A DNA stretch of 64,000 nucleotides, from the NCBI GenBank assembly GCA_964016885.1, contig OZ024748.1, forward strand, positions 51,274,001 through 51,338,000, read 5' to 3'. The notes beneath the pieces are model-generated. The model was given only the letters and a program-made list of their open reading frames with translations. It did no database searches and was not told where the DNA came from. Positions 32,352 through 64,000 of this stretch are shown one piece after another (positions within the stretch are counted from its first letter, which is position 1; the number at the start of each line of letters is the position of its first letter). The translations under genes were made by a program, and so were the position numbers. The DNA is from Eledone cirrhosa (Eukaryota).

Positions 32352-33163
32352 GTTGGCATTAGGAAGGGCATCCAACTGTAGTAACCAAGCCAAAATCAAT
32401 TCTGTATGCGCAAGACATGGTCACCTGACCTAGCATTTCCCACAACAGGACCACTCGTCTAAACCATGCTAGCATGGAAAAATGGACGTAAAACAGTTAT
32501 GATGATGATGATGATATATCAGAAGACACTAAGTATAATTTTGGCTCTGAGACATGCCCTCACATTTATAAGTAGCCACAGTGATATATGGTGCCAGGAG
32601 TGACTGATGACATCTTAGATTCACCATCAGTGCATGACATGGTGGACAATATGAATAATAATTTCTTATTTAGGAACAAGGCCAACAATTATGGGTGAAG
32701 GGAAAGTTGATTAAATTGATCCTAGTATATTACATAAGGATGAAAGGCAAAGTTAGCCTCAGCTCGATTTGAACTCTGAACATAAAGGGACATATCTAAA
32801 TGCTGCAAAGCATGTTGTCTGAGACTCTAATGCTTCTGCCAATCCATCACACTTGGTCAATAAGAATGCTTATAATTTCATATGCTATTATAAAAATGTG
32901 GGCGATGTGCAGATGACTAGTGGATAGATTCAAAATGACATAGAACGAAATTATGCATCTCCTTTGGAGAACACTTGTGCTTAACAATGGTTTGTTATCC
33001 ACTGTATAGTGTAAAGCTTACTACAGAAAATGAAACAATCCAATGCTGTTACTTCAACAACATTGCCTCAATGCAACAGAAGAGCTGTTAGGTGTGGCTG
33101 AAAGAACTAACACGATACTCCTTGGGTAAAAATGGGATATATATGCAATGATATATATATATA

Positions 33164-37282: not shown

Positions 37283-38338
37283 ACCACTTTACAGAGTGGA
37301 CTGGATGCATTATATCAGAGCACTGATACTATCACTCCAGAGATTGTACTGAGTACATGTTAGAGTGGTAACAACATTACAGAGGTTGTCATATGCTCAA
37401 TCTTATTGAAGGGGCCCTTTCAGTGCCATCCCCTGTCTCTCATCAGGTATTTGCGACAGTGCCTCTACTGGTGGATGGGTCTTTTGTATTATGGCATATC
37501 ACCAGTCAGATTAGTCCTGTGTCATCATATTTATGAAGTTCAGTTTCTTTACATCAATCATCATAATTCTGTTTTTTGACTTCCACTTGTTCCATCAACT
37601 TTATGTATTTAACATTTGTTTATGTCTTTCTTGCTCTCCATACATATCACATGATAATATGAGCATAAGTGTTTTTATTGTACTCTACATTCAATTTCTC
37701 TCAAAATCTGCTTCTCTCTTAGTTCACTTCTGCTCATGTGTTTTCATCCAAGCATCCTAGCATATTTACACACACACAGGTCTATTTTCAAAGATGTTAT
37801 GCTAAAATTCACCATGTACATCAAATGTATGGATGTAAATGGGGATCACTTGGAACATATAATGTAACACTGGACAGAAAGAGCGGAAGATGGCGAATTT
37901 TTGATATGTTATTGTTAATGGTTTGAAATAAATATACTCAAGGTTTCATCAGCTTTTGTCAGCAAATAAATTCTGTATAAAAAAATGAAGATGTAGCAAT
38001 TTGCTCTTTCTCTCTCTCCATCTCTTTCTCTATATATGTATGTGTGGGTGGGTGTAAAAGGTAAACAGGAATAACAAAAGAAATGACACAGTACGTAGTA
38101 GGAATATATATTAGTTTAATGCTTGAAATGGCAGGAAGAGGGTCTTAACATTTCGGATGATAGAATGAGAAATTAAAGAAGAAACAGAAAGATTGAAGAG
38201 ATGGGCAGGGTAGAATTGGAAAAAGAAAAAAACATTTTTTAGAGAAATATAACAGGTCCAATCATATTGTCTTCTCTTCATATATATATATATAATAGAA
38301 AAAACAAGGAAGTTTCATTTAAATATGGTAAATATTTA

Positions 38339-38500: not shown

Positions 38501-38579
38501 CACCCTTGCAAGCAGGGAAAAACGGACGTAAAATGATTTTATTTTTGTTTTTATATATATGACGGCAATGAATTTGTTT

Positions 38580-39060
38580 TGTTTTGCAAGGATTTTTATA
38601 TGAAATCGTATGTCAAAACAAATAATGTTATACTTGGGGAGGCTCATATTGTTGTAATAATTGTTTCTACTTTAGGCACAAGGCCAGCAATTATCCCAGT
38701 GCATTACTGGTACTTTATTTTATCGACCCCGTAAGGATGAAAGGCAAAGTTAACGTCGGCGGGATTTGAACTCAGATCATAAAGGGAGGTAACTCTATGC
38801 TTCAAAGCATGGCGCCCGACCCACTACCAATACTGCCAATCCACCGCCCTAATAATATTGCCAGAAATAATAACAGAACACACTCACTGTTTGGTGTATC
38901 TTTTACATCTCCATAGTTAATTTATTTGGCAATCATTGATTGAACAACGGTTAAAAATACAAATATAAATATATTTATATAATCTATCAAAGTTCTTTTG
39001 TTGCACATCTGCAACATCATCAGTGGTACTATTATGTTCCCTCCTATTGTATTGTATTGT
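38580..39060 (-). mobile_element. Penelope-like pLTR (family of 41640-42630) interrupted by a SINE
   Basis: Aligns to 42315-42630; CTGATGA at 39017-39023 (-) with stem II gttgca/tgcaac. Confidence 0.75.
38662..38849 (-). mobile_element. Meta/MESC-like tRNA SINE, full length, 7-bp TSD
   Basis: TSD taataat at 38655-38661 and 38850-38856; empty site visible in the paralog at ~41670. Confidence 0.9.
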
Positions 39061-39464: not shown

Positions 39465-39513
39465 TTGCTCCGAAGAATCCAAACCTCGGTTTGGAGGAAA
39501 CAATTGTAAGCAA
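39465..39513 (+). ncRNA. Minimal type I hammerhead ribozyme motif (U4C variant)
   Basis: ttgct CCGAAGA a tccaaac ctcg gtttgga g GAAAC aatt GTA agcaa: 5-bp stem I, 7-bp stem II, palindromic ACAATTGT stem III. Confidence 0.7.
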
Positions 39514-41499: not shown

Positions 41500-41882
41500 C
41501 TATATCTATATATACTATATGTATATAAATATATATTATATAAATATATATATAATATATATATAATATATATATATATATAATATATATATAATATATA
41601 TATATACATATATTTCTAATATATATATATCTAATATATAATATTGTTATACTTGGTGAGAGTCATATTGTTGTAATAATATTGCCAGAATTAATAAGAG
41701 AACACACTCACTGTTTTGTTGGTTTTCGCTTCTGTATCTTTTATATCAGTTAATTTAATTTATTCGGTCCTCAATGTTTACCATTGACTGACCAACGGTA
41801 AAAAATATAGATATAATATAGGCACAAACACATATATATATTTAGTCTAACAGAGTTCTTTCGTTGCACATCTGTAACATGG

Positions 41883-42086
41883 TCAGTACTATACGAACAT
41901 GCCAGACAACAACACGACGGTAACATAGACAACATAGAAATAATATCTAAACCTAGAAATGACCCAGCAGACAGGCACATCAGAGAGGCCAGTGAAATAG
42001 AACTTAGAAGGCCAAAGCTAAACAAAAAAAATGAATGGAATAACAACAACACCCAAACAAACAATACTGATCTAAAAGAAATATAA
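41883..42086 (+). pseudogene. GIY-YIG endonuclease C-terminal remnant (Penelope-like)
   Basis: Manual translation SVLYEHARQQHDGNIDNIEIISKPRNDPADRHIREASEIELRRPKLNKKNEW...stop; S.L.EH...H and R.I.EA..I....P.LN motifs; no start codon, so absent from the ORF track. Confidence 0.75.
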
Positions 42087-42338
42087 ATAAAATAATTAAA
42101 TAAATAAATACACAGACAAGCGCAATAACAACAAACACATATAAACACACACTAGTAAACTAAGATAAAATACAATAACCAAAGCACAGTCAGCCAAACA
42201 CGAACACACATCAAACACTATACACACACGCAAACGCAAAGAAGAAGACAGAAATAAATAAATAATTAAATAAATAAATAGATTAAACAGATTAAATAAA
42301 GATGCCGTAGACATACAATACAACAGGAGGAAACATAA

Positions 42339-42390
42339 TAGCACCAATGACGATGTTGCAGATGTGCAACGAAAGAATTCTGTTAGGCTA
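42339..42390 (+). ncRNA. Hammerhead motif in pLTR (C3A in this copy)
   Basis: tagcacca ATGACGA t gttgca gatg tgcaac GAAA gaattc tgttaggcta; paralogs give CTGATGA (39017-39023 -) and CTGACCA (41879-41885 region, -). Confidence 0.55.
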
Positions 42391-42966
42391 TATATATGTG
42401 TTTGTGTCTATATTATATCTGTATTTTTGACCGTTGGTCAGTCAATGGTGAACATTGAGGACCGAATAAATTAAATTAACTGATATAAAAGATACAGAAG
42501 GGAAAACCAACCAAACAGTGAGTGTGTTCTCTTATTAATTCTGGCAATATTATTACAACAATATGACCCTCCCCAAGTATAACAATATTTGTTTCGACAC
42601 ACGATTTCATATCAAAAACCTCGCAAAACTAATATTTATAGAATATAAATATATATATAATTATAATATATTTATAGAATATATATAATATATACATATA
42701 CTTACATATATATATATGTATGTATATATATATAATATATATATATATATATAAATATACATACATATACATATATGTATATATATGTATATATATATAC
42801 ATACATAAATATATATAAAACATATATATATATATATATGTATATATATACATACATATATATATATAAAACATATATATATATATATTTTATATATGTG
42901 TATATATATATATATGTTTATCTATATATATATATGTTTATATATATATATATATATGTTTATATA

Positions 42967-45395: not shown

Positions 45396-45433
45396 CGAGC
45401 TGAGGATCCACTAAGGTGAAACAATTGTTCTCG
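45396..45433 (+). ncRNA. Minimal type I hammerhead ribozyme motif, canonical core
   Basis: cgag CTGAGGA tcc actaa ggt GAAAC aatt GTT ctcg; lies at the start of a ~140-bp unique island in (TA)n. Confidence 0.75.
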
Positions 45434-49579: not shown

Positions 49580-49765
49580 TTTATCCTGGGTTCAATCGGG
49601 GGTAACCACATAAGTAAGGTACTCAATACATAGAGTATAAATATTTTACATAGAAATGGCTTCTACAGGACTAGAGCTGTTTCATTTGGGAGAAATCATC
49701 AGCACTTCCTGATGATTTCTCCCAAATGAAACAGTTCTAGACCTGTAGAAGCCAGTTCTATATTA
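49580..49765. mobile_element. Penelope-like pLTR fold-back (52-bp arms) in (TA)n
   Basis: Arms 49651-49702 / 49709-49760, loop cacttc; relatives at 19650-19745, 32229-32310, 58228-58305 plus 58567-58610. Confidence 0.75.
49705..49751 (+). ncRNA. Type I hammerhead ribozyme motif, canonical core
   Basis: cttc CTGATGA tttctcccaaat GAAAC ag ttctagac ct GTA gaag: stem I cttc/gaag, stem III acag/ctgt, GUA site, weak stem II. Confidence 0.75.
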
Positions 49766-54302: not shown

Positions 54303-54360
54303 GCTATGAGCATTTCAATGACCGGGTTCCGTATGAATCCGGTGATATCATCAGGTATTC
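54303..54360 (-). ncRNA. Hammerhead-like motif with long stem II and poor stem I
   Basis: Minus strand: gaatac CTGATGA tatc accggattc atacg gaacccggt catt GAAA tgc TC atagc. Confidence 0.5.
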
Positions 54361-59365: not shown

Positions 59366-59678
59366 CAGGGCCCATTTTAGACCTTGGGGTGGCCTAGGGC
59401 ACTTCAAGTTTGGGGGTGAGGGTCCCTCATATACGAAAAATTAGAATACACAGCAAACCCCAATTTTATATATCAAAGTCAGCTTGGTGTAAGTAAATGG
59501 AATTGGAAAGTTATACATACATGTATTAAATTCAAACAATCTAACAATCCTAAAACTAAAAAGCCCAGCAGAGGACACAAATAAATTGCTACAGCCATCG
59601 CTGGGGGACCCCCACACACCACACACTGCAGGGGCCCGTGGTAATTGCCCCCTTTGTACCCTACTAAATCCAGCCCTG
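59366..59678. mobile_element. hAT-like MITE
   Basis: TIRs cagggcccattttag / ctaaatccagccctg; degenerate 8-bp TSD atgtctgt / atgacagt. Confidence 0.65.
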
Positions 59679-60555
59679 ATGACAGTGAATGTTGGAATAG
59701 TGGGTGAAAGTGACAAAGAAGGCTATCAAAGTTTCAAGATAAAAACAGGAGGTAGGAGATAAGTTAATTGCAACGAATGAAAGTTATTCAGAATGGGGTG
59801 TTGATATTTAGAAAAGATGGTCTTTGAAAGCAATATTTATATCAAAATATATTAAAATTAGAAATGATTTTACTATATTATTAACCTTTTTGGATTGATC
59901 CAACATGTTAGTTAGATTTTCTGTGACAAATATAAATATACTTACATTATTATCATTACATTTTTAGATATTGTTCTTAATGGTATATCTTAGTAATAAT
60001 TCGATTTTGATGTGGATAATTCCTGTCCATATTTATAGTCTCTAGAAATGGGAAAGCTAATGATGGCTTGTATCACTATAAATCCAATTGGAATTAAAAA
60101 CTGAAAGATTTATGATGCTGAATGTCATTATAGCATAGAAGAATATTTTCTTATTGTACTAAAACTAGACATAAATTCTAAGGTTTTTCACAAATAGATA
60201 CAATATCTTCACAAATTAAATGATTTACACACAATATTGCAATAAAATTAAATATACACACAAAATAATATTTATATCCAGTATAGTTAGGTATGAGGCT
60301 ACATATTTTGGGAGAAAATTACAGGCAATTATATTAGCTTCACACTTCTTTGGTAATTGATATCGAACTTGGAATAATGAGTGGCAAAGTTGTGATGAAA
60401 CCTGAAAATATAACGAAACATAATCCATTTCTCACACATGTTTTACTCACAAACTCATTGATTTGGAATCGTTCAAGCTGAAGTTCATCTGAATAAATTT
60501 GAAGACTTTTGAAAGAAGACCTGTAGGGCAGTGATTAACCCATGATGATATATAT

Positions 60556-63789: not shown

Positions 63790-64000
63790 TTATCAGTATA
63801 TTCCATCTTTCAACTCTGCCCAACTGACACCTCTTGAATCCATTCACATAGGATCAGGATCTATCTAGAGTCTTCCATTTGATATGGAAATTCATGTGAC
63901 TGTCATTAAGGGTCCAGATCATGTCGATTGTAAGTATGTGCTTGATCATATTTCTGGATATTTGATGGTTTATTGTGGCATAGGAAGCAATTTTTAAATT
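63790..64000 (-). pseudogene. Degenerate Penelope-like GIY-YIG endonuclease fragment
   Basis: Manual translation across a frameshift: FKNCFLCHNKPSNIQKYDQ / IWTLNDSHMNFHIKWKTLDRS*SYVNGFKRCQLGRVERWNIL, resembling FK.R...H......KY...IW.LK....F.I.W......Y......RC.LC..EK..I. Confidence 0.55.

Follow-up and report, generated by a model that had tools for sequence, protein, structure and literature searches.

At positions 41640 to 42633 of a 64,000-nt stretch of the Eledone cirrhosa genome (in what follows, the window), two arms of about 245 bp face each other in inverted orientation across a short spacer. Such a locus can be taken for a MITE; a sequence-only reading had proposed instead that it is a Penelope-like element (PLE) insertion in disguise. 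The question is which of the two it is, how it was formed and what its parent was. The TIR-like repeats of ~240 bp are real: 41640-41885 aligns with 42348-42589 over 246 columns at 93.5% identity (E 1e-104), and this is the longest inverted pair in the 38-46 kb part of the window. The spacer opens, as had been read, with the stop-free C-terminus of a GIY-YIG nuclease. The frame is open from 41817 to 42086; its portion from the junction (41883-42083) comprises 67 codons, and the EH..H, R, E and PxLN residues are all seen in the peptide. The TCAGT microhomology said to join the left arm to the ORF is also present, the five nucleotides 41883-41887 being readable either as ORF or as inverted pLTR. 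A 44-nt tail (42590-42633), which the earlier reading had missed, extends the right arm and is absent from the left. The locus is a head-to-head insertion of two 5′-truncated pieces of a multicopy PLE, with the following parts.

41640..41887, minus strand: inverted, 5′-truncated pLTR (left arm); its outer end is site S1 (ORF ATG+27), without tail
41859..41886, minus strand: left-arm hammerhead core; G8>C and a stem II mismatch; the junction removes the 5′ strand of helix I; predicted inactive
41883..41887, no strand assigned: TCAGT, the 5-nt microhomology that joins the 5′ ends of both pieces
41883..42086, plus strand: last 67 ORF codons and stop; the GIY-YIG nuclease is represented by its C-terminal half, which has two His, Arg, Glu and Asn
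42087..42346, plus strand: A-rich 3′ UTR, ~88-90% identical to other copies
42347..42589, plus strand: direct pLTR segment (right arm), common to the left arm; its outer part encodes the ORF start (ATG 42563)
42347..42380, plus strand: right-arm minimal type I hammerhead motif (core proper 42347-42374); C3>A; predicted cleavage after 42380; predicted inactive
42590..42633, plus strand: 44-nt tail that corresponds to ORF codons ~10-24 and stops at site S2 (ATG+71); AT-rich microsatellite follows

The ORF piece has a 2-codon deletion relative to most family copies; its GIY and YIG motifs are missing, and it cannot itself be a working protein partner. The insertion is dead in its ORF and, by prediction, in both ribozymes. 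A layout of inverted pLTR, truncated ORF and pLTR is already in print for PLEs. A target-site duplication was unreadable in the AT-rich flanks. Contigs from four runs of one study cover the ORF and the arm separately; none of those listed bridges 41883-41887. No RNA data set was listed as carrying the sequence, which speaks neither for nor against its expression.

A MITE or other DNA transposon with terminal inverted repeats of ~245 bp, mobilised in one piece by a DDE transposase, would account for long, nearly identical inverted repeats around a short spacer and for the AT-rich target. The other copies in the genome argue otherwise. A search with the spacer gave 2083 first-look candidates, a lower-bound style of figure rather than a copy count. 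The window's junction is found in 1 of 30 loci, whereas in 26 of the 29 other best copies the ORF goes on upstream of TCAGT, with a complete GIY-YIG domain and a CX4CxxC linker. Walking further upstream, as had been recommended, recovered the RT in near-full copies, located before the GIY-YIG. Arm lengths vary between loci, and the tail makes one outer end unlike the other. With no fixed-length unit and a retroelement ORF in the longer copies, a MITE is scarcely credible and we discard it. The proposal of a Penelope-like insertion stands.

Near-full copies of the parent element show, in order, the pLTR, an ORF start inside the end of the pLTR, an Asn-rich stretch, the RT motifs, the CX4CxxC linker and the GIY-YIG nuclease. 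The linker is nearly invariant, a CCHH motif is present and the nuclease is C-terminal to the RT. The predicted nuclease fold (pLDDT 89) has I-TevI as its best match (Z 10.5, rmsd 2.0, 88 aligned; Foldseek E 2.4e-3), and the next five matches (Z 5.5-7.8) are mostly GIY-YIG. For the RT model (pLDDT 91) two TERTs come first, at Z 14.2 (rmsd 3.6, 237 aligned) and Z 13.9; R2, at 13.5, ties with them. Pfam assigned no family to the window peptide or to the family EN segments, and among 48 homologs it recognised RVT_1 in 8 and GIY-YIG in 6. A PDB sequence search with the EN gave no match, and the profile ranked histone H2B noise above I-TevI, at E 0.14. For the peptide check that had been called for, hhalign matched the window peptide with the EN profile at 98.2%; because a sister copy is among the sequences of that profile, the value is no independent evidence.

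The nuclease search returned 1998 representatives at E<=0.001, other clades included. Octopus vulgaris (73%) and O. bimaculoides supply the nearest named proteins; named members of the lineage come from Octopus and the coral Stylophora pistillata, and most homologs are unnamed. Pieces of the lineage also lie in, or cluster with, host gene models of O. vulgaris and S. pistillata (P0045, P0050, P0269-P0273); the models concerned (dynein regulatory subunit, kelch-like, Ty3 polyprotein) are probably mis-annotated. The ORF is broken in all 20 near-full copies examined, although their 5′ parts are 97-98% alike. Recoding of the stops as selenocysteine was considered and dropped, the stops differing between copies.

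The Asn-rich segment is in frame and N-terminal to the RT core. In the two copies measured it spans 292 and 170 aa, with 51% and 46% Asn, and it is seen at L125 (1504-4251), L120, L031, L033 and L035; the matching span is 33-70 aa in seven homologs, against 314 in L125. Long in-frame Asn-rich segments are likewise described for Penelope ORFs of Adineta vaga in the available text of Arkhipova et al. 2013 (PMC3846280), which calls such inserts unique to A. vaga Penelope. They sit there between RT and thumb or EN, and not, as here, before the RT core.

Hammerhead cores had been reported at the inner end of each arm. Both are present and neither is intact (C3>A on the right, G8>C with the stem II mismatch on the left). 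In the family, the intact core pattern CTGANGA-17 nt-GAAA occurs in 25 of 30 copies. Rfam returned nothing in the window at gathering score, nor in an intact family copy at E<=10; our assignment relies on the motif, stem II and comparison rather than on a library match. In standard hammerhead numbering the cleavage site is expected to be non-G at position 17 (the H17 rule). Over 64 motifs, across subfamilies, position 17 is T in 50, A in 12, C in 2 and never G, and position 16.1 is T in 63; both C17 motifs are those of the window arms. Helix I of the family has two firm base pairs only, and the computed energy of a helix III dimer is not favourable (0 to +1.4 kcal/mol). The intact hammerhead would self-cleave, probably as a dimer or with protein help. 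Both window hammerheads are predicted to be inactive because G8C and a C3 change abolish cleavage in a Poseidon ribozyme, according to the available text of PMC11167929.

The family motif resembles the minimal type I hammerheads of metazoan PLEs in its extra base between 9 and 10.1, its G10.1-C11.1 pair and its short helix III, and its 2-bp helix I resembles the D. virilis variant, as far as these are set out in the available parts of Cervera and De la Pena 2014 (PMC4209133), which also record opposite-strand pairs 100-700 bp apart. It differs from the hammerheads described there in that the helix III loop is not palindromic in the commonest subfamily; the window copies differ further by mutation of the C3-G8 pair. 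Related metagenome loci carry similar motifs 95-170 nt after the nuclease. Of the 23 such loci that offer 300 nt or more of downstream sequence, the motif scan matched 8, one of them far off and doubtful; it also matched two shorter loci. A non-LTR retrozyme of tandem non-coding hammerhead units was rejected: the family units are 5′-truncated pieces of a coding element. The family also shows the pLTRs derived from partial tandems, the inverted copies and the single-ended tail of EN+ PLEs.

That the junction lies at the ribozyme core had been noted, and this raises the possibility that self-cleavage or the ribozyme fold sets the point at which the cDNA stops, so that the ribozyme shapes insertions. 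Four other pieces do start at reference positions 1960-1970, the 5′ edge of the core, like the left arm of the window. Among 58 ends, however, these four are no enrichment (scan-corrected p about 1.0), and none of the 58 falls at the predicted cleavage site, from which the window junction itself lies ~35 nt in the 5′ direction. In the available text of PMC11167929, ribozyme mutants of a Poseidon element are without effect on insertion in vitro. A second cluster of 5′ ends, before AAGATGGCG, comprises 7 of 58 and is not significant either (scan-corrected p 0.26). We take AAGATGGCG to be YY1-like; it lies ~45 nt upstream of the hammerhead in the family copies and at ~42298-42306 in the window, where it is mutated. 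That the ribozyme determined the position of the junction is very unlikely, and a start-site or ribozyme-stop model of the 5′ ends was rejected, its clusters failing the scan-corrected test.

What recurs between loci is the head-to-head geometry and the position of the outer ends. We found 32 head-to-head 5′-5′ pairs in 31 of 87 loci, with arm lengths that differ from locus to locus and variable breakpoints marked by small overlaps or gaps. The outer ends are discrete, at S1 (ATG+~26) or S2 (ATG+61 to +84); in loci not chosen on the ORF start, 40 ends are at S1, 27 at S2 and 11 elsewhere. Of 34 pairs seen, 31 were resolved, and 30 of these combine one S1 with one S2 end. Fifteen of the mixed pairs were read directly, two on closer look, and 13 of 13 were predicted before the sequence was fetched, although two of the predicted S1 ends fell at +16 and +19 rather than +26. 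The exception, L080, has a complex junction and S1 at both ends; L025, L026 and L087 give no end assignment. Were the two ends independent, at most half of the pairs would be mixed, and by our own arithmetic 30 of 31 would then have a chance near 1e-8. In all but one of the 31 resolved pairs, then, exactly one arm is tailed, which suggests that priming is coupled between two sites.

This one-tail rule bears on a competing history, in which two independent insertions, or a later rearrangement such as inverted duplication or gene conversion, happened to abut. Separate insertions into one TA tract do occur (L012, tail-to-tail), and the two arms of the window differ by 6.5%. Yet no microsatellite lies between the arms, which instead share the 5-nt overlap; the same geometry recurs in 31 of 87 loci; and the one-tail rule is unexpected under independent events. 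The two arms likely came from one donor, to judge from the C17 that they share and that is found nowhere else in the 64 motifs. The private C17 opposes independent insertions, though it is compatible with later duplication. Overall, this history is very unlikely in either form.

We are confident that 41640-42633 is a dead head-to-head PLE insertion, likely produced in one event, whose parent is likely a PLE clade outside the eight named ones. This explanation takes in the two-piece anatomy, the family, the order of RT then nuclease, the S1 and S2 ends, the one-tail rule, the AT-rich flanks and the mutated cores. In such an event the GIY-YIG nuclease of the element would nick both strands of a (TA)n tract, and the RT would prime on each nick, at S1 of the RNA on one and at S2 on the other. 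The two short cDNAs would then join at their 5′ ends through the TCAGT overlap. Either a single RNA bearing two pLTRs or a dimer with two RNAs may have served as template. That one end of such insertions can carry a tail has been described in qualitative terms (PMC8557442, Fig. 2 legend; PMC3846280, available text), and for an in vitro PLE system the available description records that the RT starts at two sites and that both strands are cleaved (PMC11167929).

The sequence-only reading had further regarded the insertion as the link between the ribozyme islands of the window and a protein partner. The other hammerhead and PLE pieces of the window are as follows.

38552-39057, minus strand: older copy of the same family's pLTR with tail, 75-86% identity; a repeat inserted at ~38662-38849; hammerhead without the G of GAAA
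21776-21810, plus strand: 35-nt 3′ end fragment of the same family, then (TA)n
45400-45421, plus strand: minimal hammerhead, intact, from another repeat family, which is young (copies 97-99% identical)
49655-49760: near-perfect hairpin (about -54 kcal/mol) made of two hammerhead-like cores that face each other head to head across 6 nt
39470-39500, plus strand: further hammerhead-like core; stem II is 8 bp long and one base of the core is changed
54313-54354, minus strand: further hammerhead-like core
37418-37446, minus strand: further hammerhead-like core
33077-33103, plus strand: further hammerhead-like core
59676-59709, plus strand: further hammerhead-like core
63791-63943, minus strand: weak match (E 3e-4) to a Hydra-type nuclease C-terminus; probable decayed Hydra PLE piece

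The proposed link is only partly right. The first two are the only pieces elsewhere in the 64-kb window that belong to the 41640-42633 family. The core at 45400 is of a separate family, whose copies are found beside Hydra-type RT/EN: 3 of its 12 fetched loci (L105, L107, L113) hold Hydra-type nuclease or RT matches. The genome also contains a Hydra-type PLE (L103, a minus-strand ORF of 567 aa), Neptune-like PLEs (L250, L252, L253), whose long ORFs measure 938 and 1096 aa, and at L260 a PLE family of the Nematis side.

PLEs are the sister group of telomerase, and the IFD has been discussed as a link between PLEs and TERT that occurs only in the clades with an N-terminal nuclease and some Coprina. 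The parent family bears on this through its RT. We measured the A-B spacing from the aspartate of motif A to the first glycine of motif B. Of 48 aligned rows, 46 have a spacing of 129-137 aa (of the other two, one has a substituted glycine and one is truncated); among 70 metagenome loci found with lineage-derived patterns it was readable in 17, with values of 130-133. Canonical-type proteins have 57-63 (54 of 61, the other 7 unreadable), other PLEs of the same genome 61-62 and the Hydra-type copy 59. By eye from Fig. S1 of Craig et al. 2021 (PMC8557442), the values are ~61 for Penelope, ~87 for Naiad and ~118 for human TERT. The excess of ~70 aa is in frame and conserved, with the pattern CP.R..GR.P.IT...RW..W, and is confidently modelled as short helices. 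Motif A is of canonical type, RT1 reads LRKDHK and the DKG motif is DKS. For the insert, an Atlas search gave unnamed clusters only.

The available parts of PMC8557442 describe canonical PLEs as without an IFD, Naiad and Chlamys as having one of ~20-40 aa, and IFD-like regions as sporadic in Coprina; a short Cys-rich insert at the same position has been noted for two A. vaga families. The insert is like the TERT IFD in position and rough length, and TERTs, tied with R2, top the fold search. There is no sign of homology between the two, which were compared by position and length.

How far does the family agree with the named clades? Its longer copies have the single ORF with telomerase-related RT and GIY-YIG of the EN+ PLEs, although each copy seen is broken, and the hammerhead in the pLTR, mutated in the window, as noted above. 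With canonical C-terminal EN+ PLEs, as described in the available text of PMC8557442 and PMC3846280, it shares the order of RT then GIY-YIG, the CCHH motif and a pLTR that overlaps the ORF start, as well as the inverted 5′-truncated copy, the tail at one end, the microhomology junction, the AT-rich or (TA)n target and the pLTR hammerhead. It departs from them in the A-B insertion, in forming a separate long-stemmed branch and in a tail of 35-60 nt with two sub-sites. Penelope/Poseidon have no Cys-rich linker, unlike the family with its CX4CxxC. The Neptune-like elements of this genome have a long Cys-rich linker where that of the family is short, a spacing of 62, and branch elsewhere. Hydra has a CxCX5C linker, no CCHH, DKT and no IFD, none of which the family shows. 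Naiad and Chlamys resemble it in an insertion at the IFD position and a (TA)n preference, and Naiad also in a CX2-5CxxC finger. They differ in their N-terminal nuclease, CxC motif and DKA, in mostly lacking a canonical hammerhead and in the shorter IFD, whereas the family has a C-terminal nuclease, a hammerhead and an insert of ~70 aa. Athena and Coprina are without nuclease and telomere-associated; the family has a nuclease, and its copies are dispersed over many contigs.

Nematis is nearest. The parent may be a divergent member of Nematis, or of another named clade, that gained the insert and already sits in Repbase or Dfam as a generic Penelope, a possibility that we place a little short of even. 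By eye against Fig. S2 of PMC8557442, the family shares with Nematis the short CX2-5CxxC linker before the GIY-YIG, CCHH and a C-terminal EN, and its motif A is of canonical type. Many annotated Penelope families are moreover reported for O. vulgaris in the available text of PMC13282606, and an unrooted tree without Hydra puts the group on the Nematis-like side, with support of 89/89 and 92/84 for the side opposite. The A-B spacing, on the other hand, is 131 against 61-63 in Nematis, and the DKS and RKDHK motifs differ.

The phylogenetic placement that had been asked for was carried out on the RT core without the insert. With 100/100 support the group forms a branch of its own, outside those of the Nematis-, Neptune- and Poseidon-like groups; its stem is long (1.4-1.6 substitutions per site) and could itself mislead. 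The trees have 30 rows each, in subsets of 60 rows (two candidates were skipped for motif mismatch), span clades other than Naiad, Chlamys, Athena, Coprina and TERT, and carry clade labels assigned by motif and, for Haemonchus, by name. The RT core is 19-27% identical to all 21 canonical rows. In the AU test, nesting with the nematode row or with the core Nematis-like rows, two of three nestings, was rejected (p 0.0005), and a sister position to the Neptune-like rows (p 0.39), to the Poseidon-like rows (p 0.39) or to one basal Nematis-like row (p 0.12) was not.

By defining features, the family fits none of the eight clades, Naiad, Athena and Coprina being set apart by their descriptions. Among 30 loci and 15 extended regions from a GIY-YIG search of the genome there was no Naiad-type copy. 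No named clade of matching type was found in the literature compared, outside which lie Repbase, Dfam, Fig. 8 of Craig et al. and Arkhipova 2006. Four lineage motifs had no match in the Craig supplement, which holds only Naiad, Chlamys and Hydra sequences and is therefore uninformative about Repbase. A 2026 preprint (bioRxiv 10.64898/2026.07.22.740005) still lists eight PLE clades in its available text. The parent family is probably, on near-even terms, an unnamed deep PLE lineage, and it may sit in a database under a generic name.

The scar at 41640-42633 matters in itself for annotation only, such pieces being mistakable for MITEs. The wider reading is one that we hold to be evenly balanced: a ninth, unnamed PLE clade, widespread in octopuses, a coral and aquatic metagenomes, would be the first to combine a C-terminal nuclease with a telomerase-sized insertion of ~70 aa in the RT fingers, and its strict one-tail rule would reveal coupled priming of both strands at two RNA start sites. 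With the rule, what the literature has so far remarked on in qualitative terms becomes a constraint that can be counted and that the in vitro system already established for PLEs could test; it is relevant also to the unsettled origin of the inverted structures of PLEs. A large clade with both the conserved insertion and a C-terminal nuclease would change the picture of the IFD, and through the lineage repeated gain of the IFD can be tested against inheritance.
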